Positions 27,780-51,072 of a DNA stretch of 64,000 nucleotides are shown in pieces. The stretch lies in contig JACPPP010000046.1 of assembly GCA_016190935.1 (NCBI GenBank), positions 20,317 through 84,316 of the forward strand, given 5' to 3'. The position numbers were made by a program, and so were the translations under genes. The notes under the pieces are model-generated. The model did no database searches, was not told the DNA's origin, and saw only the letters and a program-made list of their open reading frames with translations. Position 1 is the first letter of the stretch; each line of letters starts with the position of its first letter. Source of the stretch: Armatimonadota bacterium. Lineage in GTDB: Bacteria; Armatimonadota; UBA5829; DTLH01.

Positions 27780-27782
27780 CCG

Positions 27783-33018: not shown

Positions 33019-34614
33019 TTAAGCGGTCACGCCCGACGCCGCGATGTCCCCAAGTCGAGCCCTCAGCCTCTTAAGGTAATCCACGTTCCGAAAGGTTATA
33101 ATAAGAGTCGGGCTGGGGAGCCAATCCGACTTCGCTATAACCTGCTTCTCCCTCTGGAGAACGCGGATGAGTTCCGTCGGGATGGCCTTAACGATCTTCC
33201 TATCCTGCACCATGAACCTATCCCAGAATAGGCCCAAGTAGTGGTGTTTGAGCTCGGGTGGAGCTGCCCTGTAAGCTCGGTAGATGCTCCTCGACAATCT
33301 GAGCACATCTTGCACAACATCCAGATCCGACTCCTTAACCTCATCGAGTTCATCCATCTGGGTGCGAAGACCGGCAAGAGCATCATTGAACTTTGCTCTC
33401 AGTCGCACGAACTCGTCGTCGCCAATGACGCCGTCGAGCAGTTTCTCTTCAGCTCTGTCTCTCTTCGCTTCCAAAGCGTTGATCTGATTCTGCAGGATCT
33501 GCTTTTCCGAGGCGATGCTCTGCCTTTGATCGAGGTACATGACCCGGAGTCGCTTGAGTATCAGCGTTACGAACCCGTCACTGAATTGTATACTCTTGAA
33601 TCGCTCCTCCACGGCCCGCTCGAGTCGTGGGACCTCGATGTTCTGGCCGCGGTTGCTATGGGCCCGCATAGCGGCACAGTGATAATACTGCTTCTGCTTC
33701 GCGGGATGCACCTCTGCCGTGTACCTCTGTCCGCAGATGTTGCAGAAAACAAATCCGCGCAACAGGAAATCGTGCCGCCGCCGTCGGCACGCGTAGCGGT
33801 TGTTGCGATCCATGATTTCGAGGACGCGTTTATGTTCTTCAGGGGTAATCATTGCCTTATGCCTTCCTGGCCGCTCCTGACCGTTCCATCGCATTATCCC
33901 GGCGTAGAACGGATTGCGGAACGTGCCGTACATCACACTATGTGGGACTTTCCTGCCGGTCTTCGATCGCAGACCCCGTTGATAGAGGATGTCGGCCACA
34001 TCATCAACGGAGTGCTTACCAGTAAGGTACAGTTCGAACCCTTGCCGCAGCAGCTCATACCGGTCCGAGTCTTTGGCAATGACGGCCACGGGCCTTCCCC
34101 CGCCGGTCGCCGCGCCTTTCTTCACATTCAGATAACCGAAAGGAGCAGGCGCTGGCCACCAGCCTTGTTCGAACTTCTCCCGCATGCCTCTCTTCGTCTT
34201 CCGGCTATTGATGTCCGACTGGAACTGGTTTACGCTCGCGAGAATTGTGTCGATCAGGTTCCCCTCGGGGCTGTCGTCCAGCATTGGCTGAGCAACTGAG
34301 ATCAGATTGACCTCGGCTTTTTGCAGTATCGCCCTGATTGTTAGATGGTCCTTCGTGTTTCTGGCCAGTCTGTCAGTCTCCTGGACTACGACCGCCTTGA
34401 TGTCTCCGTCCTTCGTACAACGCGACAGTAGCTCTGTAAGAGCGGGCCTTTCGAGCGTCGTTCCGCTCTTCCCTTCGTCGCGGAAGACATCAGCTACGCG
34501 AAGACCACTGCGGGCGGCGAAGTCCCGGCAGAGCTTTTCCTGGGCGTCAAGGGAGTATCCTTTGTCTGCCTGCTCCTCGGTGGAGACGCGGCAGTATATG
34601 AAGCAGTTAGCCAT
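33019..34614 (-). CDS. Large serine recombinase (resolvase/invertase catalytic domain + recombinase domain + zinc ribbon)
   Basis: Start at Met 34614 (MANCFIYCRVSTEEQADKGYSLDAQE...) with catalytic YCRVST. Downstream recombinase domain and CxxC...CxxC zinc ribbon. The ORF-track N-terminal extension to 34884 is judged non-coding. Confidence 0.8.
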   Translation of the reverse strand: MANCFIYCRVSTEEQADKGYSLDAQEKLCRDFAARSGLRVADVFRDEGKSGTTLERPALTELLSRCTKDGDIKAVVVQETDRLARNTKDHLTIRAILQKAEVNLISVAQPMLDDSPEGNLIDTILASVNQFQSDINSRKTKRGMREKFEQGWWPAPAPFGYLNVKKGAATGGGRPVAVIAKDSDRYELLRQGFELYLTGKHSVDDVADILYQRGLRSKTGRKVPHSVMYGTFRNPFYAGIMRWNGQERPGRHKAMITPEEHKRVLEIMDRNNRYACRRRRHDFLLRGFVFCNICGQRYTAEVHPAKQKQYYHCAAMRAHSNRGQNIEVPRLERAVEERFKSIQFSDGFVTLILKRLRVMYLDQRQSIASEKQILQNQINALEAKRDRAEEKLLDGVIGDDEFVRLRAKFNDALAGLRTQMDELDEVKESDLDVVQDVLRLSRSIYRAYRAAPPELKHHYLGLFWDRFMVQDRKIVKAIPTELIRVLQREKQVIAKSDWLPSPTLIITFRNVDYLKRLRARLGDIAASGVTA

Positions 34615-34682
34615 AGCAGTGGTTCCTTCCCGCAATTCACAGACTTCCGCCCGAATGCGAGGCTGATCATCTGGAGGCAAGG

Positions 34683-35042
34683 CTAAGCGGGGTCGTGGCG
34701 AGGATTGCTGTGGCGCGGCGAAAGCAGAATGGTCAGTTGTATCCCTTCCGTATCCAGGATCGTCTTCAGCGCGGCGTATTCGGAGAAGCTCAGGATGCCG
34801 GTTGTCGACACCACGACCATATCGATGCTTGGATTGCTCGCCAGAGCGCGGCGCAGGTTCCTGAGCTTGGCATCGTTGGCGCACTTGACAGGTTCGGCTG
34901 CATCGCTAACCTCATCGAGGATGTTCCAGCTGCGCTTCTTTGCATAATCCCTCAACGGGGCAAGATGATCCGCGATCGTTTCCGACGGTGATTGGCGCGC
35001 TTCCTTACGCAGAGGAATCTGGGCGTACAAGAGGCAGTTCAT
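34683..35042 (-). CDS. Degenerate resolvase-like N-terminal domain protein (catalytic Ser replaced: YAQIP instead of YARVS)
   Basis: MNCLLYAQIPLRKEARQ...DMVVVSTTGILSFSEYAALKTILDTEGIQLTIL aligns to the resolvase catalytic domain pattern but lacks the nucleophilic serine. Confidence 0.45.
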   Translation of the reverse strand: MNCLLYAQIPLRKEARQSPSETIADHLAPLRDYAKKRSWNILDEVSDAAEPVKCANDAKLRNLRRALASNPSIDMVVVSTTGILSFSEYAALKTILDTEGIQLTILLSPRHSNPRHDPA

Positions 35043-35299
35043 AGGGGCCTCCGTCTGGTTAAGCGTCCTCTCCGGGCTCAAAGAGGACGCGAGGCTGATA
35101 GCAGGGGACGAGCCTAGTGAGTACATGATGTATATCATTGGTCGGAGTCATTGTCAATAGCGGTGCAGTTACCCCCTTGGGCCCCTGGGCAAGCAAGTTG
35201 ATTTCGTTTCCGGCGGTGTGCTACTATCGATAGGCTTGGGAAGCTGGCGAAGGACGATCTGACTTCGTGATAGAGGGGAGTCGTCGGGAGGAACCAACA

Positions 35300-37912
35300 A
35301 TGCTGTACCGCTGCTTGTCAGTCTGCTTCATACTACTATTCACGGCCGTTCCGCCCGCCCCCGCGGGACAGTGGTACTCTGGTATCATTCACGTTCACAC
35401 GACGTTTTCCGACGGATCGGACAACGTTCCCCAGCGTGTGGAACTGGCAAAGAAGCTCGGGTACAAGTTCGTCATCATCACTGACCACTACGAGCAAATC
35501 GGCTCGCCTGAAAAGGTTTCTCTCAGGTATGTTGCCGCCAATCCGCGCGGAGTTGACGTCGGCTTTCCGGACTATGTGCGCAATTGCGGCGAGCAGACCC
35601 GCGACGGCTCATTTGTAGCCATTCCTGGAGCGGAGATTCAGACGATTTGGCACGCTGAACCTGACACGACTGATGCGTCTCACACAGTTGCCCTCGGAAG
35701 CGTCGGCACATCTGGTGATGACAAGCTCATCAAGATGTTTTCGGAGGCGGATCGCCAGGAGGATGTGATCAAGTGGGTCGACAAGCACCATCTGCTTTCC
35801 GTGGCTGCTCATCCGACGCTGATCTCGACGAAATCAGCGACCATCACGCCCTGGGAGTGGCAGCGCAACCGCTACGATCTGCGCAAGCCGGATAGGTACG
35901 TGGGTATCAGGGGGGTGGAATTCTTCAACTCTCAGACCGATCAGCAGAACCACGATGTGCTGGCCTGGTACCTGTCTCTACTCAGAGAGGAGATGAAGAA
36001 ACCCAAGGATAAGCGCAAACCCATATTCGTAACGGCTGGCTGCGACAGCCACGGCTGGAAAGACCCCAACGACCTCGAACGCTGGCTGCGTGGCACATAC
36101 GTGTGGGCTAACGGCCTCAGTACCAGTGGGATTCTTGATGCCCTCGCAAGTGGACGTTCTTACGCATCGACAGGCGGCGTTTACCTCAAAGAAATGAATT
36201 ATCTCCCCGGGGAGCCGGTCCAGAATGTTGATACGCCAACCTTTCGCTTCACGGTAGCCTTTCCAAGCCGTTCCACATCATTTCTCCTCACCTTATCAAA
36301 AAGCTACGGCATCCCTCTGAAGCTGGTGGCGGACTTGATTGGTGAGAGTAACGTGACTACCACCATAATGACGTACCGGGACGGCGAATTAGTGCCGGAG
36401 TCCCGCGCAACGTTCAAGGGTATGCCGACCAGCGTCAAGTACACCTGGACGGACAAGACGGCGGCTCCCGGCGAGCACTGGTACGTGCTGTGGGTGGATG
36501 GAAGGCTGGTCACATCCCCAATCAGGCTAGAGACTACAGGGCGAGCCGAAGACATGCAGAGCTTTCGCCAGGGAACTATGCTCTTTGTGCGAGGTGGAAA
36601 CATCTGGCGGGCTGATCTCACTGCTGGCAAAGCTACCTTAGTCGCGAGAAACGGAAGGCATCCGGCTTGGAACCCTGACAACAGAATTGTGCTGTTCACA
36701 CGGTTGCTGTCGGGCGCATGGGACAAGAGCCTAAGCGTGCGCATAGATTCCTGGGGCCTGTTCAGCCATGATCTCGCGGAGGGCAAGACGGCCAGGATTG
36801 GCAAGCTATCCTCCGAACAGCCGATAACAGCCGCTCGATCAGCGAGAGACGGAGAACTGATCTACCAGTATGCCAATTTCAAAGGCCAGCCGGAACTGTA
36901 TCGATTCCCAGGGATTGCGGGCCGCGATGTCAGGTTCCAGTCGGCTCTCTCTACTGCACAGTACCATTGGGGTGCCTCAATTTCAGGCGACGGGAAATGG
37001 CTGGCTTACCAAGGAGGAGGGGTTGACAGCCGCTATAATACGATAGCCATCTCTGATCTGGCGGAGCTTCAGGTTCGAATTGCCAAGCCGCTCAATCCTA
37101 CGGTCATTTACGGAGCAGGCGGGACGGCGTGGTCTCCGGATAACAGGTGGATCGCAATCGCCGACTCGGATGGCAATCTCTTGAAGATGAGCTTGGAGGG
37201 CTCAGTCACGACACTGGTTCATGGCAATCGGTCGTTCCGAGTGCTACGCCCTACGATCTCGCCCGACGGTCGAGCGGTTGCGTTTGAAGCCCAAGGGCAG
37301 ATATGGGTCTGCGCGGTGTCAGGTGGAGACGCGCAAGTGCTCGTTGCACATGCTACAGAGCCATGCTGGCAACATCAGGCGGTCGCAGTGAGAAGGAAAC
37401 CACAGCGGCAGCACGCCCCGATCACAAAAACCCTTCCGCGCACGGCCCAGTTCCCGGACAGTACGTACCTTGGTACAGTTAGAGTACGAGAGACGTGGAC
37501 GGCTGTGAGGCACCGCTTAGGCGATCATTACAGGGTTCTGCGCGGCACTGGCGACGATATCACGGTAAAGGTTGCATATTCGGACCCGCGGCAAGATGCC
37601 GCTTTGATAATCGGCATGGACGGGACAAAGCTCTCGGACAGCAGCGTGGTGTCTCTCATCAAGCTTGAGAGGACGCAGGGCCGCCGCTTTCCAAAGGCAC
37701 GGGTCGCCTTTGCTGCAGCGGGCAACGCACGCGGTGTGAGGCTGGGCGATTCCCTATCAGATATCCACGCGGCTCACCCGGGCGAACCCCGTTCCGAATG
37801 GCATGGGGACTACCAATATGCGGTCCAATCCCCACATGACTGGCCGTGTTACGTGCATTACCGGGTCAGCGGCGGGAAGGTGACCGCGATGAGTAGCGGC
37901 TATACCCCATGA
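35300..37912 (+). CDS. Secreted PHP-domain phosphoesterase fused to TolB-like beta-propeller (PD40/WD40-like repeats)
   Basis: Signal peptide MLYRCLSVCFILLFTAVPPAPAG. PHP motif IIHVHTTFSDGSD...ITDH. C-terminal repeats of WSPDNRWIAIADSDG / ISPDGRAVAFEAQGQIW type. RBS gggagg before ATG 35300. Confidence 0.65.
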   Translation: MLYRCLSVCFILLFTAVPPAPAGQWYSGIIHVHTTFSDGSDNVPQRVELAKKLGYKFVIITDHYEQIGSPEKVSLRYVAANPRGVDVGFPDYVRNCGEQTRDGSFVAIPGAEIQTIWHAEPDTTDASHTVALGSVGTSGDDKLIKMFSEADRQEDVIKWVDKHHLLSVAAHPTLISTKSATITPWEWQRNRYDLRKPDRYVGIRGVEFFNSQTDQQNHDVLAWYLSLLREEMKKPKDKRKPIFVTAGCDSHGWKDPNDLERWLRGTYVWANGLSTSGILDALASGRSYASTGGVYLKEMNYLPGEPVQNVDTPTFRFTVAFPSRSTSFLLTLSKSYGIPLKLVADLIGESNVTTTIMTYRDGELVPESRATFKGMPTSVKYTWTDKTAAPGEHWYVLWVDGRLVTSPIRLETTGRAEDMQSFRQGTMLFVRGGNIWRADLTAGKATLVARNGRHPAWNPDNRIVLFTRLLSGAWDKSLSVRIDSWGLFSHDLAEGKTARIGKLSSEQPITAARSARDGELIYQYANFKGQPELYRFPGIAGRDVRFQSALSTAQYHWGASISGDGKWLAYQGGGVDSRYNTIAISDLAELQVRIAKPLNPTVIYGAGGTAWSPDNRWIAIADSDGNLLKMSLEGSVTTLVHGNRSFRVLRPTISPDGRAVAFEAQGQIWVCAVSGGDAQVLVAHATEPCWQHQAVAVRRKPQRQHAPITKTLPRTAQFPDSTYLGTVRVRETWTAVRHRLGDHYRVLRGTGDDITVKVAYSDPRQDAALIIGMDGTKLSDSSVVSLIKLERTQGRRFPKARVAFAAAGNARGVRLGDSLSDIHAAHPGEPRSEWHGDYQYAVQSPHDWPCYVHYRVSGGKVTAMSSGYTP

Positions 37913-38495: not shown

Positions 38496-38551
38496 TATCT
38501 GGAGTAACAAGAAGAATGAAAAGAGGAGGGACTCCTTGGCGGACATCCCTC
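38496..38551 (-). terminator. Candidate intrinsic terminator for the VWA-MoxR-nuclease operon (7-bp stem ggaggga/tccctcc followed by a U-rich tract on the minus strand)
   Basis: Plus strand 38524-38551 ggagggactccttggcggacatccctcc. On the minus strand the stem-loop is followed by tcttttcattcttctt. Confidence 0.3.
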
Positions 38552-38643
38552 CTTGACTCCCTGAACTCCGCGTTCTCTTTCCGCGTGGACATATGGCGCC
38601 TCCAGCCCCACGGGTACCTACGCGCCTTAGCCAGGGATTGGGA

Positions 38644-40194
38644 CTACGCACCCCGAATTGCTCTCAGGATGTTGCCAAGCTTCCAGGGGAGCTCGTCGGA
38701 GTTGCAGCAGACGATCCGGTCTTCGCCGAACATGTCCGTGACGTACCCTTCTGTGGTCTCATCCGGGTCCAGAAGGACTCCGATGACTTCCACCTTTCCA
38801 CGCAACTCCCGACAGACTCTCTTCCCGAGTTCGGCGTCGTTACACGCCCCGTCCGTAAGGCAGAGAACAAGCCTGATGCTCTCGGAACGGAGAGTCATAG
38901 GCACGGCGTGCGTTTGTATAGCCCGGCCCATGTCCTCGTAGCCGCAGCGCGCGGGAACAAGCCCGGCGACCAGTGCTTTGCCCCTCTCGCCTACCGCCGA
39001 GTCGGCGATCCTGAGGTTCTGAGGTGTGACCATGATCTCGTGGGGTATCCGAAGCTCCGTGCATACCAGATGCAGTGCCATGACAGCCCCGGCGACGGAC
39101 TCGATTCTGCTCGTGCCTGCGGAGTTGTGATTGAGCGAGGTCGAATGGTCAACGATCACCTTGAGCACCAGCGTGGGAGGAGCTTTGGGGCCGGCCTCCT
39201 CGGTCAGAAACGGTCGGTTCATATCCTTCAGATAGTCTCTCATCGAAAACCTGCCACCCCTTTCGGCCGGTTCCAGCCGGCAGGGCGACTCCTCCCACGA
39301 CAGTTCGTCGATCAGCTCCTGGACGAGCGGCGTCACCTTCTCCTCAAGCTGGATGTACGGCTTCGGTTCGATCGCTTCGTAGCCGCTTCCTTCTCTCCTG
39401 TCGTTGGGCAGAACTTCGCCGTCGAAAGGCTCCGGTTCGACCGGGCTATCGGACGTCGCGGTGCTCGAACCAAGTGGTCTGCCACACACTTTCTCGGCCT
39501 CGTCACCCGCGATCCTCTCGCCCTCGATGTGCCCGAGCCTGTCCATCAGGTCCGTAACCCACGGCGCGATATCTAGTTCGTGGATCCCGAGCAGTTCCAC
39601 AATCTTCTCCGAGTTGCGATAGACGACCTCAGCAGTGTCCGCCTCCCAGGACTCATAGACAAGCGGTTCGACCTTCTTCCAGATGGCCTGGTTTCTGGCG
39701 GAGAGACCGCCTTTCACCGGCTGGCCTGCCCTTCTCGCCCAGCGAAGTTGCAGGAAGTAGGCGACGACCTCGCCCGGACAGTCGGAAGTCTCGTCTATCG
39801 GCTTGGAATCCAGGTAGAACCTGTCGGAGAGCTTCTGGACGAGCCATCTGACTCCCGCAAACTCCTCGCTCATCCGCCGCTCAACCCTTTCGTCCTCCAG
39901 GATGTTTGCCACTCGCTTCACCAGCTCCGGAACCCTCTCAGGGTCGGTGAACCGGCGGTGTCCCGCCTCGTGCACCAGAAGAGCCTTGGTGAGCTGATAC
40001 TGCTCCGCCGCCGGCGCGGGGAAGATGTCGGGGTTGACGGCAATCCGCCGAGCGGTGAAATTGCAGTAGCCGCTCGGACAGCGGCTGCGGTCCGGCTCGA
40101 TAACAACGCGGTATGGCGCGACGCCCTGCATCGCCCGGCCAAAGACGATCAGCCGGTTTCTGATATTGTCCCATTCGTACCAGGGAACAGCCAT
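38644..40194 (-). CDS. DUF2201-type protein: N-terminal putative metallopeptidase-like domain (HEAGH) + C-terminal von Willebrand factor A (VWA) domain; MoxR partner
   Basis: LLVHEAGHRRFTD HExxH-like motif. C-terminal VWA with MIDAS-like VIVDHSTSLNHNS and LVLCLTDGACND. Start at Met 40194 (MAVPWYEWD) preceded by an aaggagg RBS. Confidence 0.65.
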   Translation of the reverse strand: MAVPWYEWDNIRNRLIVFGRAMQGVAPYRVVIEPDRSRCPSGYCNFTARRIAVNPDIFPAPAAEQYQLTKALLVHEAGHRRFTDPERVPELVKRVANILEDERVERRMSEEFAGVRWLVQKLSDRFYLDSKPIDETSDCPGEVVAYFLQLRWARRAGQPVKGGLSARNQAIWKKVEPLVYESWEADTAEVVYRNSEKIVELLGIHELDIAPWVTDLMDRLGHIEGERIAGDEAEKVCGRPLGSSTATSDSPVEPEPFDGEVLPNDRREGSGYEAIEPKPYIQLEEKVTPLVQELIDELSWEESPCRLEPAERGGRFSMRDYLKDMNRPFLTEEAGPKAPPTLVLKVIVDHSTSLNHNSAGTSRIESVAGAVMALHLVCTELRIPHEIMVTPQNLRIADSAVGERGKALVAGLVPARCGYEDMGRAIQTHAVPMTLRSESIRLVLCLTDGACNDAELGKRVCRELRGKVEVIGVLLDPDETTEGYVTDMFGEDRIVCCNSDELPWKLGNILRAIRGA

Positions 40195-40274
40195 TTCGGT
40201 TTTTCCTCCTTGCATAAAAGAATCGGGCCGCCCGAGTTGAGCGGCCCATAGAGTTACGGTTTTGTTTGCCTTAC

Positions 40275-41783
40275 CTACTTGGGCGTGTGAGCCTCGATCA
40301 GGTCGAGAAGCTGGTTGGCGATATCCTCCCGCAGATAGCCGTCCGCATCGGTTCCCGCCACCTGGTGCATCCAGGTGACCTTCGCCGCAGCTTTCAGCCT
40401 GGAGAGAACGGACTTGCCTTTCCCGCCCTTGCACTTCGTCGCCCAGGCAAAGAGCCCTCTCGGCGTGATCTCGCCGGCTAGCTCGCGGTTTCGCCTGAGC
40501 CTTCTGGTCTCGTTCGCCACTTTGACCATGACCGCCGCTGTATCGCGGTCGATCCCTGTCTCCGTGACAAGAAGATCCTCTTCGTCTTTGGGCGCAAGGT
40601 AACGGAACTCCAGCACGCAGGAGAAACGGTTGAGCAAGGCGGTGTCCAGAGCGTTGATCGCGTAACCTTTGCCCAGGTTCATCGCCATCACCGTCTGGAA
40701 CCCGGTCCTCACCTTCACTTCCTCCGACCCGTGCTCGGTCAGCACGACAGCACCGCGTGATAGGACCCCAAGAAGGATGTTCAGCGTCCTCGTGGGCATT
40801 CGGTTCGCCTCGTCGATGAACAGGTATCCTCCGGCCCTCATAGCCTGGACCAGGACCCCGTCCTTCCAGTGGAACCCGCCCCTGCCGTCGGGCACGAAGC
40901 CGCCCAGCAGATCGAACTCCTTCATGGATTCGTGGCCTTCGATGACGGAGACCGGCTTGCCAGATCTCGCCCTGTCGAAGGCCTCGAATGCGCAGAGCGA
41001 TTTGCCGGTGGCTGTAGGTCCGACCAGCAGGCAGTGCATCCCGAGTTCCAAGCTCTCGACGAGTTCGGCAAGCTGTGGGCCGCGGAAACGGCTTTTGACC
41101 GCTGCTGGCGCGGGCAGTTCCTCGGACAATGGCGCTTCTGCGCCGCTGCGATAACCCCTCAGTTTCGCCGCGTCGGTCAGCACCTGGGGATCGAGTGGTT
41201 CAGCCACTGCGACCTCAGGCGGGTAGGTGGCGTCCCGGATCTCGAAGGAGTCGAGCCTCTCCGGATCGTTTATGGCATCGCCCCCCCGCCACTTGGCCCA
41301 GTAGTAGAGCTCGTCTGCAAGATGCATCAGAAGCTCAAGATGCCAGTCGTCGACGGCGGGCGACGCAGCGCGATACACCAGCATTTCCTCGAGCGCGTCA
41401 AGTAAATCGCCGGCCTCGTCTTTGCAGACCAGGGCCTCGCCCAGAAGCAGCAGTCCGAGATGGTAGGTGACGTGTCCTTTTGGCAGGTAAACCTTGTTCC
41501 CTACCAGATAGCAGTGGTGGAAGTCGCTGCCCGACTGGGAAAGCGACCTCACCATCACGACTCCTTCCGGTTCAAGCCTCGAGACGCCGATGACGTCTCC
41601 TTTCAGTGCGACTACGCAGGCTTTGCAGAGCATGGCCGAAAGATGGCCAACGGCCCTGGTGTTCCGCCTGGCAGGGTAAGTGATCTCCTGGCCGCCACGA
41701 AGCTCGGGGAAGATGTCTACCTCTCGCTTTCGGGAGAACAGTATCTGAGTCACGGTTCTTCTGTCTTCGGCTGCAAAGGCCAT
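40275..41783 (-). CDS. MoxR-family AAA+ ATPase with an about 240-aa uncharacterised N-terminal extension
   Basis: Walker A CLLVGPTATGKSLCAFEA, Walker B GGYLFIDEANRMP, sensor region TVMAMNLGKGYAINALDTALLNRF, typical of MoxR/AAA_5. Confidence 0.7.
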   Translation of the reverse strand: MAFAAEDRRTVTQILFSRKREVDIFPELRGGQEITYPARRNTRAVGHLSAMLCKACVVALKGDVIGVSRLEPEGVVMVRSLSQSGSDFHHCYLVGNKVYLPKGHVTYHLGLLLLGEALVCKDEAGDLLDALEEMLVYRAASPAVDDWHLELLMHLADELYYWAKWRGGDAINDPERLDSFEIRDATYPPEVAVAEPLDPQVLTDAAKLRGYRSGAEAPLSEELPAPAAVKSRFRGPQLAELVESLELGMHCLLVGPTATGKSLCAFEAFDRARSGKPVSVIEGHESMKEFDLLGGFVPDGRGGFHWKDGVLVQAMRAGGYLFIDEANRMPTRTLNILLGVLSRGAVVLTEHGSEEVKVRTGFQTVMAMNLGKGYAINALDTALLNRFSCVLEFRYLAPKDEEDLLVTETGIDRDTAAVMVKVANETRRLRRNRELAGEITPRGLFAWATKCKGGKGKSVLSRLKAAAKVTWMHQVAGTDADGYLREDIANQLLDLIEAHTPK

Positions 41784-41789
41784 GGCTTG

Positions 41790-42587
41790 TCACTTCGGCC
41801 TCCTTCCCATCGCCTTGAGTACTGCGTCGGTTCTTGCCTCTTCTCTTCGCTTCAGTTCGGATGGCTTAGGCACGCCGTTCGGCCAGCAGGTGCCGGTGAA
41901 CGGACAGTAGCCGTCGCACTGCCACAGGCCCTCCAAGGTCACCCTCTCCGGGAGCTTTCCACCGTCAAGGGCGGCCTTCAGGTTCTTGAGCCTGGGTGTG
42001 AGCCAGCCCAGAACCTGCCTCACGCCCATCACCTGGACATCGACGCGTTTGACCTCGCTCATGTCGAAGTAAACGATCTCCAGCCTGTCTACCTCGTAGT
42101 GGGGCATCGCCAGATACCGGTACAGGTTGACCTGAAGAGCATGGTTCGCATACGGCTTGTCGTCCTTGGGGATTCTCTTTGTGCTCTTGTAGTCGACGAG
42201 CTTTCCGTGCTGGGGATAGATGACATCAGGATGGCCCGACAGGACGATCCCTGCCACGCTACGCTCGAACCTCCGCTCGCAGATTGCGCCGTCGGACTGA
42301 GCCTGAGCAATCACGGCGTGGAAGAGCTGGCCCCGGAAGGCGTAGTAGAGCTGGGAGGGGTCGAGGTAGATGTCAATTCGTGCTTCCAGCGCCACTTTCC
42401 GCAGGCAGTTGAGCAGGGAGGATACGGACAACCCCGCCTCCTCTCGGATGTTACGCTGCATGGCCGAGAGGATTGGATAGTCGAACTGGCAGGGATTCTC
42501 GTGCGAGGCGGCACATTCCAGACATTCGTCGAAGAGCAGGTCGCCCTTGCCCTTCGGACAGCGAAATCCTCTAATCACGTTTTTCAC
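41790..42587 (-). CDS. Cas4/RecB-like PD-(D/E)xK nuclease with four-cysteine (Fe-S-type) cluster
   Basis: GHPDVIYPQHGKLVDYKSTK (D...DxK). N-terminal Cys (CPKG...CLEC...C) plus C-terminal CDGYCPFTGTC (C-x3-C-x5-C), as in Cas4/AddB-type nucleases. Confidence 0.55.
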   Translation of the reverse strand: MKNVIRGFRCPKGKGDLLFDECLECAASHENPCQFDYPILSAMQRNIREEAGLSVSSLLNCLRKVALEARIDIYLDPSQLYYAFRGQLFHAVIAQAQSDGAICERRFERSVAGIVLSGHPDVIYPQHGKLVDYKSTKRIPKDDKPYANHALQVNLYRYLAMPHYEVDRLEIVYFDMSEVKRVDVQVMGVRQVLGWLTPRLKNLKAALDGGKLPERVTLEGLWQCDGYCPFTGTCWPNGVPKPSELKRREEARTDAVLKAMGRRPK

Positions 42588-42668
42588 CTCTTTCTGAGTG
42601 TGGAGTAAAGGAGGCCGATCCTCCCTGTGGGGGAAGATCGGCCAGAGTGGTGGTGGCCCCGGCGGGAT

Positions 42669-43046
42669 CTATGCAGCGTGTTCCTTGTAGTTCGGACAGC
42701 TCCAGAATGGGCCGTATTTGCCCTGGCGCTCCGTAACCGGGGAGCCGCAGGTGCGGCCGTTCTTCAGCTTCAGGTTGCAGCGCCTCTCGCCGTCCTCGTC
42801 GAGATAGGTCTTCTCGGGCCTTTCCTCCTCCTCGGAGTTGCCATGGTTCTCCTCCGGGACATAGCTTCTTCGCCTGAGCGGCACGCCCCCGGACTTCAAG
42901 ATACCAACCATGGTCTTCTTTGCCCTCGTCTCCAGCGCGGCTTCATCCTCATCACGAAGCGTGATCTGACACTCGAAGCCCTCTTTCGCATGGTAGACCG
43001 TGTTCCAGCTTGCCTGCGCCTCGTCCAAGTTTCTCACCTCCTTCAT
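42669..43046 (-). CDS. Small protein with topoisomerase-I-type C4 zinc-ribbon (CNLKLKNGRTCG...GKYGPFWSCPNY)
   Basis: C-terminal motif closely matches the Zn-ribbon found at the C-terminus of bacterial topoisomerase I/III (GKYGxFWxCxxYP). Confidence 0.4.
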   Translation of the reverse strand: MKEVRNLDEAQASWNTVYHAKEGFECQITLRDEDEAALETRAKKTMVGILKSGGVPLRRRSYVPEENHGNSEEEERPEKTYLDEDGERRCNLKLKNGRTCGSPVTERQGKYGPFWSCPNYKEHAA

Positions 43047-43368
43047 TTCCAGATGTCTGCTCCCGTCTGCTCGTTTCTTATGGCGAATACCTGGCCAAGA
43101 GTCCAGTCGACGCCTTCCCGCATCCGCAAGTCTTCGTCCCAGACTTCGGTCACAGCAGTCTCTGCTGCTTGCTCCGCCTCGCCTTCCGCGTCGGCTACGA
43201 CGCTCACAGAGACGGTAACGTCAAAGCACACTGTCCAGCGAGTCATTTCCTCGCCTCCATCCAGGCGTTTTCGTTGTAAGGTTCTGAGTTCCAGATTAAC
43301 CCATTGCAGCCTCAAGACAAGGGGGGACGATTTGCCGCTGCCGGCAACAGCGCCCTGCTTTTCCAGAA

Positions 43369-44673
43369 GTGGCCGGGTGCTATAGTGGGTCCATGAGAGC
43401 AGACTGCCATGAAGACAATTCGATCACCCCCTTCGGGGTCACCGACTACCGGGACACGAGGCTCAGGTTCGGCATCAAGCGGAAGGATCGCCGGGGCCAT
43501 ATGTATGTCATCGGCCAGACGGGGACGGGCAAGTCCACGCTGATCGAGAATATGGCCATCTCGGACATCCTGCGGGGGGAGGGACTGGCCCTCATCGACC
43601 CGCACGGCGACCTGGCGGAGAGCCTTCTCGACTCGGTGCCCGAGAAAAGGTTGGAGGATGTCATCTACTTCAACGCGGCCGACTCCGAGTATCCCGTGGG
43701 CATCAACCCTCTGGACAAGGTGAATGCCGATCTCCGGTCCCTTGTCGCCTCCGGCCTCATTTCAGTGTTCAAGAAGATCTGGCCCGATTTCTGGGGTCCA
43801 AGGTTGGAGCACATCCTGAGGTACTCGTTGCTGACACTCCTTGAGCGCCCCGATAGCACGCTTCAAGACGTGCCGCCGCTCCTGACGGACAAGGGATTTC
43901 GGACGAAAGTGCTGAAGAGCGTCACCGACCGGCAGGTGCACAGCTTCTGGCTGCTGGAGTTCGACAAGTACACCGCGTGGCTCAAGTCCGAGGCGGTCTC
44001 GCCGGTCCTGAACAAGATGGGGCAGTTCCTGGCAAGCGTGCCGATCAGGAACATCGTCGGCCAGAGCCGCAGCAGCTTCAAGTTGCGGCAAGTGATGGAT
44101 GAGGGGAAGATCCTGATAGTCAGGCTTGCCAAGGGAAGGATCGGGGAAGACAACTGCGCTCTGCTCGGAGCGTTGATAGTCACCAGAATCATGCTCGCGG
44201 CGCTCAGCCGCTCAGACATACCAGAAGGAGAGCGCAGGCCCTTCTATCTCTACGTCGACGAGGTCCACAACTTCTTCACCGACTCGTTCATAGACATGCT
44301 GTCCGAATCCAGGAAGTATGGGCTGTGCCTGGTGCTGGCGCATCAGTATATCGATCAGCTCGACGAGAAGATGCGCTCGGCCATCTTCGGGAACGTAGGA
44401 ACGATCGTCTCCTTCAGGGTTGGAATGACCGACGCCAGAGTACTGGCCCAGCAGTTCGAGCCTGTCTTCGACGGGGCCGACCTCATCGGCCTGCCGAACC
44501 ATCACATCTACCTGAAGCTGATGATAGACGGGGTCACGTCCCGTCCGTTCAGCGCGAAGACACTACCGCCGGCCGCCGGAGCACACTCCTGGAGGAAGGA
44601 AATCACTGAGTTCTCAAGGGCGAAGTACGGGAGGCCGAGGCAGGAAGTCGAGCGTCAACTCATACGCCGGTAG
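43369..44673 (+). CDS. TraD/VirD4-like or HerA/FtsK-superfamily (DUF87-like) ATPase
   Basis: Walker A HMYVIGQTGTGKSTLIENM, Walker B FYLYVDEVHNFF. About 430 aa, divergent from the upstream operon. Confidence 0.5.
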   Translation: MAGCYSGSMRADCHEDNSITPFGVTDYRDTRLRFGIKRKDRRGHMYVIGQTGTGKSTLIENMAISDILRGEGLALIDPHGDLAESLLDSVPEKRLEDVIYFNAADSEYPVGINPLDKVNADLRSLVASGLISVFKKIWPDFWGPRLEHILRYSLLTLLERPDSTLQDVPPLLTDKGFRTKVLKSVTDRQVHSFWLLEFDKYTAWLKSEAVSPVLNKMGQFLASVPIRNIVGQSRSSFKLRQVMDEGKILIVRLAKGRIGEDNCALLGALIVTRIMLAALSRSDIPEGERRPFYLYVDEVHNFFTDSFIDMLSESRKYGLCLVLAHQYIDQLDEKMRSAIFGNVGTIVSFRVGMTDARVLAQQFEPVFDGADLIGLPNHHIYLKLMIDGVTSRPFSAKTLPPAAGAHSWRKEITEFSRAKYGRPRQEVERQLIRR

Positions 44674-44810: not shown

Positions 44811-46370
44811 CTAGCCAGCGCTCATGGCCAGCGGCATGCACCTCTCAGGCTTCAGCACAGTCATCCTGCTTCCGAACGTCTGCTCGAACCACTCCGGCGT
44901 CTGTGTATGCACGGGGATGATGTGCTTCGGCTGCATCGTGTCGATCAGCTCAGCCAGCGCCACGCCTGTGATATGGCCGGAGGCGTGGTAGCGGACCTCG
45001 GACTCCTTGTCTTCGGGATCTCCGACAAGAGTCATCCCGAATCTCGACACCCAGTTCCGCAGCCGACGGAAATCATACTCCTGCTCTTCCGAGTACAGTT
45101 CGCTGGATGAGTAGAGGTAGATGCCCCCAGGAGGAGGATTGATGTCCACGAGGTGGCTCAGGTCGAAGAAGCTGAAGCACAGAATGTACCGGCCGGGCTC
45201 ACAGCCTATGTCCTCGGGCTCCAGCGATTTTCCGCCACACATGCTATGAACATGCTGCTCCCATCCGTCCATCCGGGCCTTCGCCTTCTCGTAGAGCATT
45301 ATCCTGTCATCAGCGGCGGGTTCCGGAACGGCAGCATCGACCAGGTGCATAGCCTCCAGAAGCAACACATCCTTCGCCGTCAGGACCAGCCGCCGATCAG
45401 TCTCCTCCGCTATCCGCAGGAAAGAGAGCAGCCGCTCCACGTTTCTCGGTCCGAAGTCAGCTATAACGAACTGACCAGCCGCAGCCCTCACCGCTACCAC
45501 CGCGTTGGCATATACGTCGTCCTCGGTGGCGGACGTATCCTTGTGGATATGGGTACCCTCGGTGATGAGGACAAGCGGATGCAGCTTCGCCGCAGCTTCC
45601 GCAAACTGCCGCGTCAGCGCTCCGTTACGTCCGTGGACGCGTAGGTCGCCGGTATAGACGACGTATCCTTCGTCGGTCTTGATCGTGAAGCCTGTTGCGC
45701 CGAAGATCGAATGATCGACAGGGTAGCCGCAGACTTCAAGACTGCCTATGCAGGTGCAGGTACCCGGCATCTGTGCCTGAAGCCCTCTCGATGAGGTGAA
45801 GGCGGTCTCCCAGAAGTCGGATGCGCGGTCGGATAGCTCAGCCGAGTTGAGCAACAGGAATGGCCTTTGCACTGCATCACAGCCTCTCGCCGCGCCGACC
45901 GCCCCCCCGTTGCAGGCCTTCGGGATTGCGTAGCAGACCTCCGTTTCCATCGTACTCCTGCCCGAATCCTGAATAGCTTTGGTAATGAACGTGGTCATGG
46001 CGCCGCATGCTATGGGGATCTCCGGCTTGAGGAATGATATGTAGCCTGAGTGGTCGAGGTGGCCGTGCGATAGCAGCACTCCCTGCACGTCCACATCACG
46101 AATCGAGCATCGAGACTGCACCCGATCCCAGACGCCGTCATCTGGCACGAGATCGTCACGGTAGATACCCTTCAGCGGGGGCAAGAGGTCCATCTCCAAT
46201 GGATCGAGCAACCCCTTCACGCCGCGTGGCTGAAGGAACTCCTGATAGAACTTCTCCTTCGAGGAATAGCATATCCCGAAGTCTAGGAAGACGGCGGTGC
46301 CGCCAGACTCGACCAGGATCTTGTTCCCGCCGATGCAATCGGCTCCGTCATAGCATGTGATGGTGACCAT
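44811..46370 (-). CDS. Metallo-beta-lactamase-fold hydrolase (RNase J/beta-CASP-like nuclease candidate)
   Basis: HxHxDH motif in VLLSHGHLDHSGY and further His/Asp ligands downstream. 519 aa. Confidence 0.65.
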   Translation of the reverse strand: MVTITCYDGADCIGGNKILVESGGTAVFLDFGICYSSKEKFYQEFLQPRGVKGLLDPLEMDLLPPLKGIYRDDLVPDDGVWDRVQSRCSIRDVDVQGVLLSHGHLDHSGYISFLKPEIPIACGAMTTFITKAIQDSGRSTMETEVCYAIPKACNGGAVGAARGCDAVQRPFLLLNSAELSDRASDFWETAFTSSRGLQAQMPGTCTCIGSLEVCGYPVDHSIFGATGFTIKTDEGYVVYTGDLRVHGRNGALTRQFAEAAAKLHPLVLITEGTHIHKDTSATEDDVYANAVVAVRAAAGQFVIADFGPRNVERLLSFLRIAEETDRRLVLTAKDVLLLEAMHLVDAAVPEPAADDRIMLYEKAKARMDGWEQHVHSMCGGKSLEPEDIGCEPGRYILCFSFFDLSHLVDINPPPGGIYLYSSSELYSEEQEYDFRRLRNWVSRFGMTLVGDPEDKESEVRYHASGHITGVALAELIDTMQPKHIIPVHTQTPEWFEQTFGSRMTVLKPERCMPLAMSAG

Positions 46371-46428: not shown

Positions 46429-49017
46429 TTAGCTCAGGTTGTACTTCGATTTGCGCAGAATATACGGCTCCCTACCGCCCTCCAGAACCTGAAGGGCCGG
46501 CTCCTGCGCGCATTCAATGCCACCCAGGCATCTGACTGTTGCGCTGGTGGAGTCGCTCTCCACGTGAATCATCATGTCCGTATCTGAGGACACGGCGACC
46601 GTGTTGTTGTGCGTGGTCAAGATGAACTGCCGCTGTGTCTTGTTCTGGCGCAGTTTCTGAGCCACGTCCTCCCAGACAGTCTTAATGTCCAGGGCGTCTT
46701 CCGGTTGGTCTATGATGATCGGCCTCTCTCCCCGCGACAGGGCTATGATGAGCAGCGCAGTGCATTTCTGACCAACGGACAATTCGTCCAGCGTCGCATA
46801 GGACCCGCTATCCTTCCTGAACTTGATCGTCGGCTCGTCCTGTGGGTACCAACCGTGCTGGAGGCGGAGCAGCGGCTGAAGGCTCTCGGCGCTCATGAGC
46901 CTGCTGACCATAGTGTCAGCCGTTGTCTCCGGGATGCCGGCCTCTGCCGCAAGGCCGGCGGCGTCCTTGGTAAGGACAAGATCCACGAACCGTCGCGGTG
47001 AGAGCTTCTCGCCGACATCTTCAATATAGTCGCCCTTGACTCTGGAGCCGGTAACAAGCTCCTTGAGCTGCTCCTGAAACTGCCCGGAATCGGTTGAGTG
47101 CTTTACCTCCAGCCGAAGTTTCCGGCCAGACTGCTTAGCCAGGTCTGCATAAACTGTGGCCCGCTCGTTGTACAGGTCATCGTAGAGCCTGTCGAGAGCA
47201 TCGAGAGATTCCGTTCTCTCAGTTTGAAGCTTGCCACACTCGGCAGCACGTGCCTTGCGCTGGCTGATGCGCTTTTCCAGCTTCGACAGCTCCTCCTCAG
47301 CCTTCGCCCGCTCCTCGTTCAACTTCTTCTCGTCGGCAACAAGCGTCTCCGCGTAGGCCTTCTCGGCTGCGTTATACTGCGGCATCCACGATGCTCGCCT
47401 TGCCTCGATCAGCGACTTATGCGACTCCATGATCGCGATGGCGGCATCCAGCTTCTCCCGCACGTCGCTTCGCGCCTTCGCCGCGCTGTCCGTGGCCCAC
47501 TTGAGGTCGGGGTCCTCTTCTGCCGTCTCCTCTGCTGCAGAACCTTTGATGTCGTCCCTGGCGGCAGTGATCAGTTCCTTTACGCCATCGGCGTCCTGCT
47601 CAATGCCGCCGAAGGCGTTCTTTTTCTGCTTCGCAGTCTCGAACGCGGCCCGCAGCTTCGCTCGTTCCTCGCCACCCGCGAGAGCGGTGTCGATGTCTCT
47701 GATCTTGCCCTTGTACGTCTCGGCTTCCTTAATGATCTCCGTGACCTCCGTAGCGGCCGCGAGCGCGTCGCCGAGATCTTTGTCATTCTGATCAAGAGCG
47801 GCCTGGACTTGGGCGATCTTGCGCTGATGTGATGGAACGTCCACGAAGGAGTCCGTCAGCAACAGCTGCGCCCGCGTGTCCTTCGCAATCTCGATGATCT
47901 CCGTCTGACTGTATGCCAGGATCGGGAAAAGCTCCGGGATGTGGCCCTGGTACTGGATGCTTGCCGCCGTGTCAGTGCACGTGACGCTTCCGTCCGTTGC
48001 ACGGCGCAGAGCATACGTCACCCCCGCCGCCGTCAGCAACTGCAGTTCGACATGTCCGCTCGGTCCGAGGCACTTATCGACCTTCTTCCTGTGGTCTGCA
48101 AGGATGGTCGGTTCGTTAGAGGGCTGCCCTAAAGCGAATCTCATGAACTCTATGATGAGTGATTTGCCTGCACCTTTGCCACCGAAGATGCTGTTCAGGC
48201 TATCGTTTAGGTAGAGCTGCTGCCCATCAAGGAAGCCTCCCACCACGTTCATGCTGAGTATCCGGGGGAAGGCGTCCTGTGGTGTCCAGTCCATGGGCAT
48301 TATGCGTACCGACGGGTCGATGAAGCACTGTCTGAGACTTTCGAGCCTCAGGTCGCTGTCCAAGCGCATCCAGCACCTCCGCAGGCCGATGCCATCAAGC
48401 GAGTGCTTCTTCGGATCCGATGCGTCCGGGTTATCCGATATCTGGTAACAGGCCGGTATCCTGGAGAAACCGTGGCCTTTGTCGAAGTCCGCCGGAAGAG
48501 AGGGCCCAGTGGTCTCAACGGCATCGTACCAGGGGGCGTTAAGCGTTGCTATGCGTGTCTGCCCATTCAGCTCCCGGAAGACGCCTTTCGGGCCGTCGCA
48601 GTGCGCAAACACAACAAGCCCGCCCCAGTCGCGGATGGTCTTCGACACCTCCTCCAGAGTCTTCGAACACAGCGTCTCCGGCTTGCCCCGCTCATCAGGC
48701 TTGATGCCAAGCGCCGCGAGCAAACCGTTGACGTATTCGGTATCCCGGTCTATGTCAAACAGGGCCACGACATGTACGCCCGGCGCTACCGTGATCTCCA
48801 CTCCCGGGAACACGGCAAGCGCAGAACCAGCCACAGCCGACCTCACCTTGTCTATCCACTCGCCTGTGTTATGGTCGGTGATGGCTATAGCGGCAAGTCC
48901 TTTGCCAACGGCGGCTTCGACAACCTGTTCCGGCGTAACAGTCTTGTCCGCAAAGCACTTGGACGCCGGTGTATGTATGTGGAGATCAACACTTCGAAAA
49001 GCCAAACCCTTTCCCAT
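46429..49017 (-). CDS. PHP-domain phosphoesterase fused to an SMC/RecF/SbcC-like ABC ATPase with central coiled coil (single-chain SbcCD-like nuclease-ATPase)
   Basis: N-terminal PHP motifs VDLHIHTPAS...ITDHN. Walker A IFGGKGAGKSLIIEF. About 300-aa coiled-coil region. C-terminal signature/Walker B/D-loop LSVGQKCTALL...IIIDQPEDALD and H-loop ILTTHN. Confidence 0.65.
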   Translation of the reverse strand: MGKGLAFRSVDLHIHTPASKCFADKTVTPEQVVEAAVGKGLAAIAITDHNTGEWIDKVRSAVAGSALAVFPGVEITVAPGVHVVALFDIDRDTEYVNGLLAALGIKPDERGKPETLCSKTLEEVSKTIRDWGGLVVFAHCDGPKGVFRELNGQTRIATLNAPWYDAVETTGPSLPADFDKGHGFSRIPACYQISDNPDASDPKKHSLDGIGLRRCWMRLDSDLRLESLRQCFIDPSVRIMPMDWTPQDAFPRILSMNVVGGFLDGQQLYLNDSLNSIFGGKGAGKSLIIEFMRFALGQPSNEPTILADHRKKVDKCLGPSGHVELQLLTAAGVTYALRRATDGSVTCTDTAASIQYQGHIPELFPILAYSQTEIIEIAKDTRAQLLLTDSFVDVPSHQRKIAQVQAALDQNDKDLGDALAAATEVTEIIKEAETYKGKIRDIDTALAGGEERAKLRAAFETAKQKKNAFGGIEQDADGVKELITAARDDIKGSAAEETAEEDPDLKWATDSAAKARSDVREKLDAAIAIMESHKSLIEARRASWMPQYNAAEKAYAETLVADEKKLNEERAKAEEELSKLEKRISQRKARAAECGKLQTERTESLDALDRLYDDLYNERATVYADLAKQSGRKLRLEVKHSTDSGQFQEQLKELVTGSRVKGDYIEDVGEKLSPRRFVDLVLTKDAAGLAAEAGIPETTADTMVSRLMSAESLQPLLRLQHGWYPQDEPTIKFRKDSGSYATLDELSVGQKCTALLIIALSRGERPIIIDQPEDALDIKTVWEDVAQKLRQNKTQRQFILTTHNNTVAVSSDTDMMIHVESDSTSATVRCLGGIECAQEPALQVLEGGREPYILRKSKYNLS

Positions 49018-50653: not shown

Positions 50654-51072
50654 AGTTGGCTGGCTCCACAGAAACTACAATGGCCGTCTGCCGCAACGAC
50701 GCATCGTGACGGACAGTGGACGTTGTATCGCGCCTGCTCGCCCACGGCATTATAGCATCAAAAGCTCTGCAATGGCCAGCCATCCAGCTATACTGGGTAT
50801 GACTACAGATGACTGTTGTTGACCAAGCTCTCATTGTCGGCGGTGATCCAGCAAGAGAGACGATAGCAGAACAGTAGTGATGGATAGGCGCAGGCAGTTC
50901 GGTTTGCCGAGCACACCGTCGAGCGAAGCAAGCGGCAACGCCTGGTGAAGGAGACACGCCTCCGGGCTTGACGGGGGTTGACGATCACCCTGCGGACTCT
51001 TTAGAATTTGGAGTGTCGGTTGACGCATCGTCTGCCGGTATGCAGCGCTGTCTGAATTGCGAGTGCGGGACC

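Follow-up and report, generated by a model that had tools for sequence, protein, structure and literature searches.

The cassette and its proteins

The stretch of DNA considered here, referred to below as the window, comprises 64,000 nucleotides of contig JACPPP010000046.1 from an Armatimonadota bacterium. Its minus strand carries a cassette of four conserved genes, which encode a zinc-ribbon protein, a Cas4-like nuclease, a MoxR ATPase and a HExxH-VWA protein. The same DNA had earlier been read without database searches (the sequence-only reading), and five consecutive minus-strand open reading frames (ORFs) had been assigned to one operon. All five are present in the ORF list of the window where they had been placed, and four of them constitute the conserved cassette. 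The latter has a defined gene set with recognizable domains and intact catalytic motifs, is conserved at related loci, and is carried as cargo by mobile elements. The results are based on sequence, predicted structure and gene neighbourhoods of organisms that are uncultivated. The features of the cassette are the following.

42669-43046, minus strand: zinc-ribbon protein of 125 amino acids (aa), the first conserved gene of the cassette (ORF list, family hidden Markov model (HMM), charge profile)
41790-42587, minus strand: Cas4/RecB-family PD-(D/E)xK nuclease, 265 aa (PDDEXK_1, motifs, Cas4 models)
40275-41783, minus strand: MoxR AAA+ ATPase of the CbbQ/NorQ class, 502 aa (AAA_5, CbbQ_C, PDB profile matches)
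41064-41783, minus strand: N-terminal extension of the ATPase (residues 1-240), an apparently family-specific alpha/beta domain followed by a disordered linker
38644-40194, minus strand: HExxH-VWA adaptor, 516 aa (homologue alignment, Foldseek)
40214-40248, minus strand: intercistronic GC-rich hairpin with a 9-bp stem and a U tract (terminator scan, fold)
38524-38553, minus strand: terminator-like hairpin, then CUUUUCAUUCUUCUU (terminator scan and fold; dG -26.7 kcal/mol, z -2.3)
43043-43315, minus strand: 90-aa ORF with a TTG start, listed in the sequence-only reading; no Pfam match

Alignments of the homologues show that the Walker A and Walker B motifs of the ATPase, the HExxH motif and the MIDAS (an adhesion site that depends on a metal ion) of the adaptor, and the PD-DxK-QxxxY motifs of the nuclease are all invariant.

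Residues 241-502 of the ATPase comprise the Pfam domains AAA_5 (E 9.5e-19) and CbbQ_C (25.2 bits, cut-off 20.6), with the Walker A motif GPTATGKS and the Walker B motif FIDEANRM. A comparison of the MoxR profile with the PDB gives CbbQ (E 1.5e-21) and NorQ (8.6e-20) as the best matches, that to CobS being much weaker (3.4e-9), and the phage CobS-like family phrog_249 is matched with an E of 1.6e-29. The protein search returned 168 full-length homologues with 53-81% identity, and some homologues are labelled 'NorQ' or 'nitric oxide reductase activation protein' in the databases. The protein belongs to the CbbQ/NorQ subfamily, as it has the ATPase core, the CbbQ/NirQ/NorQ C-terminal domain and an adjacent adaptor with a C-terminal, MIDAS-containing VWA. 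At one related locus (L014, 10001-11496; L numbers denote individual loci here and below), the MoxR gene matches as three pieces in different frames and is probably a frameshifted pseudogene or an assembly error.

The 240 residues that precede the ATPase core had been described as an unassigned extension, and they remain so after HMM and structure searches: no match was found in Pfam, PHROG or the PDB, the profile search against PDB sequences giving chance matches only. The fold of this domain is predicted confidently, and the model resembles no solved structure. A profile search among 1.84 billion representative proteins gave 91 matches only, all of which lie at the N-terminus of proteins of about 500-620 aa or in fragments, save one repetitive protein of 1,675 aa. 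On this distribution, we therefore conclude that the domain is specific to this family. It is acidic overall (pI 5.4), and is for this reason not an obvious nucleic-acid binder.

The start of the adaptor gene is placed by homology at MAVPWYEW (position 40194), which gives a protein of 516 aa, and not at the GTG of the ORF at 40434. The N-domain (residues 1-232) contains the invariant HEAGH together with NILEDER, and a glutamate is found some 21 residues after the HExxH. It is connected through an acidic, partly disordered linker to the C-terminal VWA (residues ~336-516), which has a complete and invariant MIDAS (DHSTS...T...DG; D349-x-S351-x-S353, T390 and D448). The HExxH motif and the downstream glutamate suggest a working metallopeptidase. 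The architecture is unchanged over 184 homologues of about 510-520 aa, in agreement with the earlier description of the protein as a HEAGH metallopeptidase-like N-domain with a C-terminal VWA.

The additional label 'DUF2201-type' (PF13203 DUF2201_N with PF09967 VWA-like) was dropped, because neither the full adaptor nor any of 13 isolated N-domains matches a Pfam family at E values up to 10. The 120 listed adaptor homologues are likewise all without a precomputed Pfam domain, and the N-domain profile gives only chance matches to PDB sequences. The nearest relatives are instead NorD, which has the closest VWA domain, and phage CobT-like VWFA proteins, which Foldseek matches over the full length in BFVD (E about 1e-14). 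Phage proteins annotated as 'metallopeptidase / VWA-like domain' are matched more weakly (E 1e-6 to 1e-5), and phrog_459 is matched at 8.8e-5.

The nuclease matches PDDEXK_1 of Pfam above the gathering score (E 3.7e-10), the Cas4 models of PADLOC (E 1e-9) and phrog_1706 (E 3.8e-17). The motifs GxPD, DYK and QVNxYR (QxxxY) are kept in the homologues, as is a 1+3 set of cysteines (LLNC... and WQCxxYCxFxxxCW). The assignment in the sequence-only reading of a PD-(D/E)xK nuclease with Cas4/AddB-like cysteines is thus well founded, and the protein falls within the broad Cas4/AddB-type family, with a predicted Fe-S cluster. Three further conserved cysteines near the N-terminus, which had escaped that reading, and a basic C-terminal tail are also present. 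The profile has no match among PDB sequences. We have also considered a CRISPR-associated Cas4. This is ruled out, because the score against the TIGR00372 Cas4 equivalog is 32.2 bits at a cut-off of 65 and no CRISPR array is found in the window by a tandem-repeat scan; no cas genes occur in the neighbourhoods read. The 101 homologues of the nuclease include distant ones, and the three of these that were checked all precede MoxR and then VWA. At the loci checked, this subfamily is seen only beside the MoxR-VWA pair.

In the 125-aa protein (annotated "hypothetical protein HYX78_01965"), an N-domain that is conserved (SWNTVY..EGFECQITLRDEDE) is joined through an acidic linker (residues 61-85, pI 4.1) to a basic CCCH zinc ribbon at the C-terminus (RRCN..CG..GKYGPFWSCPNYKEH). 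A topoisomerase-I-type C4 zinc ribbon had been proposed for it. The match to Zn_ribbon_Top1 (PF01396; E 2.1e-4) is at 21.5 bits below the cut-off of 32. The putative ligands, three cysteines and one histidine, are conserved in the homologues, which keep a C-x9-C...C-x5-H pattern and a GxYGxFWSC motif. The similarity to the zinc fingers of primase and MCM10 is weak and non-significant, and the profile finds only chance matches among PDB sequences.

The 90-aa ORF, which had been taken as the first gene of the operon, is without a homologue among 30 related loci, and the protein collection does not contain it. It was dropped as a member of the cassette because it is not conserved, and it probably lies outside. 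The interval 43047-43368 is better read as a divergent promoter region that is common to the cassette and the TraD-like gene described below. At L030, a 60-aa ORF is found at the equivalent position and is unrelated to the 90-aa ORF of the window.

The intercistronic hairpin is located between the MoxR stop and the VWA start, just 5' of a GGAGG ribosome-binding site. An equivalent hairpin is found in about 21 loci (L001, L003-L006, L009-L011, L016-L025, L027, L029 and L030), with stems that vary by clade (e.g., GGGCCGCTC, GAGGCCCGCGCCG and GGCCACCGGAG), and the five loci without a MoxR-VWA spacer are also without the hairpin. The hairpin probably serves as a partial terminator or attenuator and thereby determines the ratio of MoxR to VWA. 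More ATPase than adaptor would therefore be produced, which fits the model of a ring with a single adaptor discussed below. The second hairpin lies about 90 nt past the VWA stop, with the U tract after the stem. It is plausible as the terminator of the operon, as had been suggested from the sequence, and should be read with the background in mind: terminator-like sites in the region are not enriched over shuffled sequence (6 found, 4.1 expected). Scans of the region for Rfam families, tRNAs and tandem repeats found nothing.

Conservation and mobile-element setting

Related loci were gathered through the MoxR protein search, a scan of one genome per species and look-ups of the encoding contigs. 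The scan gave 22 loci, mostly from Chloroflexota. The MoxR and VWA genes are adjacent in 29-30 of 30 loci, that is, at every locus having the sequence. The loci are divided here into a close clade, with MoxR at least 52% identical to that of the window, and a distant clade, with 38-46% identity.

In the close clade, the Cas4-like gene precedes MoxR at all loci with upstream sequence, L004 having a remnant only, and the family HMM places the zinc-ribbon gene 5' of the nuclease gene in 13 loci. The identities of the three large proteins to those of the window (MoxR/Cas4/VWA) are 73/74/61% at L003 and 62/48/45% at L001, and thus fall in parallel, as expected from co-inheritance. The neighbourhood survey proposed in the sequence-only reading therefore finds the homologues to be strongly syntenic, and the concern raised there that they might not be is removed.

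The distant clade, found on chromosomes of sponge-associated and other Chloroflexota, keeps the MoxR with its N-domain and the HExxH-VWA gene. Instead of the nuclease and zinc-ribbon genes, the gene upstream encodes a helical repeat protein without nuclease motifs, and its interpretation as a diverged Cas4 was rejected on these grounds. The nuclease and the zinc-ribbon protein, which had been viewed as accessory components, are thus present throughout the close clade and missing from the distant one. The picture that emerges from these comparisons is that MoxR-VWA is the old core, to which the nuclease and the zinc-ribbon protein have become fixed partners in the larger clade. Downstream of the VWA gene, L016-L025 (e.g., L017, 13486-16085) carry RadC and tyrosine integrase genes, and AbiE toxin-antitoxin genes lie upstream in some of them. 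Within this clade, the chromosome OZ244789.1 has two copies (L018 and L024).

The cassette is always found on integrative (mobilisable) elements of uncultivated bacteria. These elements encode a serine or tyrosine recombinase and a TraD-like coupling ATPase, often with a Replic_Relax relaxase. In the window, the following genes of this kind are present.

43369-44673, plus strand: TraD/TrwB-like coupling ATPase (HerA/FtsK superfamily), divergent from the cassette (Pfam, PADLOC, PHROG)
33019-34884, minus strand: large serine recombinase A, XisF/CcrB-like in NCBIfam, at one element boundary
50968-52554, plus strand: large serine recombinase B, with Resolvase and Recombinase domains, at the other element end

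The TraD-like protein matches TrwB_AAD_bind (E 1.1e-10) and TraG-D_C, mad8 of PADLOC (E 6.6e-16) and phrog_5156 (E 4.2e-63), and its gene adjoins the cassette in 8 loci. Homologues of recombinase B (56-69% identity) are located downstream of TraD in 8 TraD loci. From about 53 kb onward, the composition of the window changes to housekeeping genes with lower G+C. Other neighbours of the cassette among the related loci are HTH_36, SSB, Rep_O, ImmA/XRE pairs, ParA, excisionase-like HTH_17, and tyrosine or serine recombinases.

A minimal form of the element, of about 6 kb, is found at L051 (8043-14251) and consists of a serine recombinase, TraD, a 218-aa gene and a second serine recombinase. Recombinase A corresponds to the one that lies upstream of TraD in this element. 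A stretch of about 8.5 kb in the window is represented at L051 by only about 0.3 kb. The window thus has the appearance of the minimal frame with two cargo slots filled, the first (recombinase A to TraD) by the cassette and a PHP/PD40 gene, and the second (TraD to recombinase B) by an RNase J-like gene, a TrlF-like gene and a 362-aa gene. The best 80 TraD-homologue loci in metagenomes (44-69% identical) were also inspected, and within 10 kb none of them contains a gene for MoxR, VWA, this nuclease or the zinc-ribbon protein; several carry both recombinases. The possibility that the cassette is an obligatory part of the backbone of TraD-type elements was therefore rejected. Since 0/80 loci carry it and the window corresponds to the minimal form with two filled slots, the cassette is optional cargo. 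The minimal element occurs twice on one metagenome contig of 1.7 Mb (L051 and L052).

Past the VWA gene, the cargo is variable and mostly related to defence. In the window, SspB/C/D are found there, with Shedu-like and HerA-like genes further away and a TrlF/Ppl-like ATPase on the other side of the cassette, while other loci have type I or type III restriction-modification systems, GmrSD, AbiE, DUF499/HEPN or Fic. The window is thus one large defence island. The Ssp genes (26985-32154, minus strand) encode homologues of SspD, SspC and SspB of a phosphorothioate-type module, the lowest E value being 6e-299. Further along, at 18710-19909 and 16426-18459 on the minus strand, are the genes of a HerA/mad8-like ATPase and of a protein in which a Shedu (SduA/DUF4263)-like domain is present.

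In the second slot, the gene for an RNase J-like metallo-beta-lactamase/beta-CASP protein (44811-46370, minus strand) adjoins that for a TrlF-family PHP-plus-SMC-like ATPase (46429-49017, minus strand). The latter scores 383 bits, above the cut-off, and is also Ppl-like; the two genes may form a two-gene defence candidate. Convergent with the cassette (35267-37912, plus strand) is a gene for a protein of 881 aa, in which TolB-like PD40 repeats and a PHP phosphoesterase domain are combined with what looks like a signal peptide; this protein has no match in the defence databases.

A plasmid search by tblastn with the adaptor gave only distant homologues on Deinococcus megaplasmids, beside ParA and ParB. 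That on plasmid pDrdI (669 kb) of Deinococcus wulumuqiensis (L026, 466964-471316) is 25% identical to the adaptor and is accompanied by a separate AAA ATPase, and four other Deinococcus plasmids also match.

Relation to known systems

The ATPase and the adaptor are of the same class as the NorQ-NorD and CbbQ-CbbO pairs, in which a MoxR AAA+ ATPase works with an adaptor having a C-terminal VWA. In contrast to NorQ and CbbQ, the ATPase of the cassette has the N-domain of 240 aa, and the N-domain of its adaptor contains a HExxH motif and has no detectable sequence similarity to NorD or CbbO. The cassette is, moreover, borne by mobile elements and has a nuclease and a zinc-ribbon protein nearby, rather than a client metalloenzyme.

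Two-gene arrangements of the same architecture have been noted in viruses, namely a MoxR with an N-terminal metallopeptidase-vWA protein in jumbo phages (PMC7824862) and 'CobS/CobT-like' MoxR-VWA pairs in haloviruses (PMC7911831, PMC8651126), in both cases with a function that is not known. These pairs, found also in Gordonia phages, share with the cassette the two-gene architecture, the HExxH-type N-domain, the C-terminal VWA and the carriage by mobile elements. The matches to phrog_249, phrog_459 and the Foldseek hits place the cassette among pairs of this kind, the likeness being one of architecture and fold, with a remote sequence relationship. A tblastn search with the adaptor against 50,697 phage records found no match, and with the ATPase only the AAA part is matched, at about 32% identity. 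The ATPases of the phage pairs are without the N-domain, whereas those of the cassette have it, and no Cas4-like nuclease is linked to those phage pairs that were checked. IMG/VR gave 2 weak matches only, and the elements that carry the cassette are not viral. At L031 (UViG_3300003690_000017 in IMG/VR, 5237-9392), a related pair consists of an ATPase of 643 aa, with an N-terminal region that is longer and different, and an adaptor of 683 aa; its neighbours are genes for RecT, an AAA_25 helicase-like protein and an M23/SLT lysin.

Pairs of vWA and MoxR have also been predicted as cores of nucleoside-triphosphate (NTP)-dependent conflict systems (Kaur et al. 2020, PMC7159879). In the ternary systems of this type, the third component is VMAP, iSTAND, FtsH or a beta-propeller (PMC7159879). 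The cassette has in common with them the MoxR and vWA core, the presence of extra components, a predicted role in NTP-dependent conflict and the occurrence in Chloroflexota. However, Pfam and PADLOC give no VMAP, iSTAND, FtsH or beta-propeller match among its genes. The VWA of the ternary systems is N-terminal to variable effector domains, whereas that of the cassette is C-terminal, behind the HExxH domain, and the effector candidate of the cassette is a separate Cas4-like gene with no variable effector repertoire. Membership in the ternary systems, to which the sequence-only reading had referred, was consequently rejected, because the third component is absent; the position of the VWA (PMC7159879) also differs.

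Compared to the Cas4/AddB/RecB-family Fe-S nucleases, including the Cas4-like exonucleases of phages, the nuclease of the cassette has the same PD-(D/E)xK core, QxxxY motif and 1+3 cysteines, while the N-terminal module of three cysteines and the basic C-terminal tail are additional. A McrBC-like reading does not fit and was rejected, because the ATPase is of the MoxR/CbbQ type and has a VWA partner.

Another system to be mentioned here is ArdC, a conjugative anti-restriction protein that combines a DNA-binding domain with a metalloprotease domain. The resemblance is one of functional analogy only, as both involve DNA-binding and HExxH metallopeptidase activities on a transferable element. There is no sequence similarity, and in the cassette the corresponding activities would reside in different proteins and would be linked with those of an AAA+ ATPase, a VWA and a nuclease.

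MoxR, VWA, the zinc-ribbon protein and the 90-aa ORF are matched by none of the HMMs of PADLOC v2.0.0, and the nuclease is matched by generic Cas4 models only. In literature searches, no account was found in which a MoxR-VWA pair is combined with a Cas4-like nuclease. These results agree with the earlier statement that the combination is not a described defence system. Its distinctive features are the new N-terminal domain, the dedicated nuclease subfamily and the defined position as mobile-element cargo.

Possible roles of the cassette

It is probable that the cassette acts in DNA-level conflict. As to the form that this takes, we tentatively favor an NTP-gated nuclease module that would degrade competing incoming DNA. 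We infer the following scheme, including its ring-adaptor stoichiometry, the client, the trigger and the direction of the conflict. By analogy with the solved relatives, MoxR would form a hexameric, ATP-driven ring, onto which a single HExxH-VWA adaptor would dock. The MIDAS of the adaptor would capture an acidic segment or residue of a client, which would then be remodelled by ATP hydrolysis and may be cleaved at the HExxH site. The likeliest clients would be the co-encoded proteins that touch DNA, i.e., the zinc-ribbon protein, with its acidic linker as a candidate ligand of the MIDAS, and the Cas4-like Fe-S nuclease. The chaperone pair would hold the nuclease inactive, or load it onto DNA, until a trigger is received. 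The triggered nuclease would degrade the DNA of a phage or of another element, which would benefit both the carrier element and its host. A further restriction on the scheme is that the nuclease cannot be the only client, because the distant clade has MoxR-VWA without any nuclease.

The sequence-only reading had regarded the genes as a candidate NTP-dependent conflict system. Synteny, the defence-rich islands and the absence from PADLOC are in line with a candidate system, while the ternary membership fell away, as described above, and defence as such is not established.

A number of observations weigh against a nuclease directed at incoming DNA. The core proteins fit no known or candidate anti-phage system of PADLOC, with no match for either the ATPase or the adaptor. 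The sequences are highly conserved across phyla, with a mean column identity of 65-67%, and a diversifying sensor is not apparent, unlike in many defence systems. All carriers are uncultivated, being metagenome-assembled genomes or metagenome contigs. The distant clade retains MoxR-VWA alone, and in 9 of its loci RadC directly follows the VWA gene, with a tyrosine integrase thereafter. The cassette typically starts at a divergent promoter region that is common to backbone genes (TraD, or SSB, HTH_36 and Replic_Relax), and at L001 and L118 it is co-oriented with Rep_O...TraD or with ParA-Xis-Int. SSB is directly upstream of it at L027, L114 and L115. Genes are also inserted between MoxR and VWA: an ArdC-N anti-restriction gene at L118 (11396-12415) and a SymE-toxin-like gene at L027 (5572-5865), L114 (11971-12267) and L115.

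The analogous pairs of phages and viruses lie among replication and recombination genes, as reported for viral MoxR-VWA pairs in replication regions (PMC7911831). Finally, in 7 TraD loci without MoxR-VWA (L033, 8744-9857 on the minus strand, L038, L043, L045, L047, L073 and L079), the slot divergent from TraD is occupied by a different Cas4-like nuclease and a protein of about 120 aa. That nuclease has its own 1+3 cysteines. Its presence in the same slot hints at a function tied to the element and at a nuclease beside TraD being a recurrent theme of these elements. The C-terminal motif AQKRYLFRLLAERGI...EAS..IE.L of the ~120-aa protein is similar to one that occurs in duplicate in the distant clade (L016-L025), in the gene upstream of MoxR.

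The shared promoter, the inserted ArdC- and SymE-like genes, the SSB and RadC neighbours and the phage pairs in replication regions make two alternatives serious rivals, namely counter-defence or establishment of the element and processing of the element DNA. We consider the former unlikely, although it comes next after the nuclease module in our estimate. In this alternative, the cassette would be an establishment or counter-defence module that is expressed together with the mobilisation genes and acts, in a new host, on the DNA of the element. Incoming DNA would be bound by the zinc-ribbon protein and the nuclease would trim or process DNA ends, while the AAA+ ring and the HExxH-VWA protein would constitute a two-part ATP-dependent protease or remodeller that strips or cleaves restriction and defence proteins of the host in an ArdC-like manner. 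The ArdC gene within the L118 cassette, SSB directly upstream at the three loci given above, RadC directly downstream in the 9 distant-clade loci, and the divergent promoter region common with TraD, Replic_Relax and HTH_36 all point in this direction. The same is true of the invariant HExxH and MIDAS, and the combination of an AAA+ ATPase with a metallopeptidase would resemble the logic of FtsH-type proteases. However, most related TraD elements are without the cassette, a RecB-family nuclease is not a usual component of anti-defence, and no known anti-defence protein resembles any of those in the cassette; ArdC, RadC and SSB are associated with it through their neighbourhood only.

Somewhat less likely still is a role as a replication or recombination accessory of the element, with a Cas4-like end-processing exonuclease and a DNA-binding zinc-ribbon protein. 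MoxR-VWA would here assemble or recycle a nucleoprotein complex, or would mature the Fe-S nuclease in the way that NorQD and CobST insert metal cofactors. That the closest solved ATPases serve in cofactor insertion or enzyme reactivation is consistent with this, as are several neighbourhoods: the MoxR/CobT-like pair of Gordonia phage Chidiebere adjoins primase and DnaB, the L031 pair adjoins RecT and the AAA_25 helicase, Rep_O precedes the cassette at L001, and the different Cas4-like nuclease fills the same TraD-side slot at the 7 loci described above. On the other hand, related elements may or may not carry the cassette and the minimal one is without it, the distant clade has no nuclease, and neither a single-strand annealing protein nor a polymerase shows a consistent linkage to the cassette.

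A metabolic chaperone of the NorQD, CbbQO or CobST type that activates a host enzyme, e.g., by hijacking host CobN as proposed for viral cobST (PMC8651126), would accord with the CbbQ_C domain, the CbbQ, NorQ and CobS structures as closest solved relatives, the NorD-like VWA and the database names of some homologues, but is very improbable: no Rubisco, NO reductase (nor), cob, chelatase or other client enzyme is found in the ~35 neighbourhoods that were read, the pair shares an operon with the nuclease and the zinc-ribbon protein and is always on mobile elements, the similarity to CobS is much weaker than that to CbbQ and NorQ, and no CobT family of Pfam is matched. For the metabolic alternative that the sequence-only reading had itself raised, a client enzyme is thus seen next to the pair at none of these loci.

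Returning to the nuclease module, the reading that we put forward, with reservations, is that the cassette represents a new family of nuclease-based conflict systems specific to mobile elements, acting in defence or counter-defence, in which a MoxR ring and a metallopeptidase-VWA adaptor would gate an Fe-S nuclease and a zinc-ribbon DNA binder.

MoxR-VWA pairs are widespread, and few of them have a known client, such as Rubisco, NO reductase or the chelatases. To our knowledge, the copies in phages and mobile elements have no established function. The present cassette is a compact and strictly conserved case, with the likely clients encoded in the same operon, and the function of the MoxR-VWA pairs of mobile elements therefore becomes directly testable. 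In addition, the analysis delineates a family of small elements of the form serine recombinase, TraD, serine recombinase, which have two cargo slots and occur in Chloroflexota, Armatimonadota and related bacteria that are uncultivated. If a role in defence or anti-defence is correct, a new family would join the immune repertoire, the cassette would be the first NorQD/CbbQO-type activase machine recruited to control a nuclease, and the new fold of the MoxR N-domain would gain a functional context.

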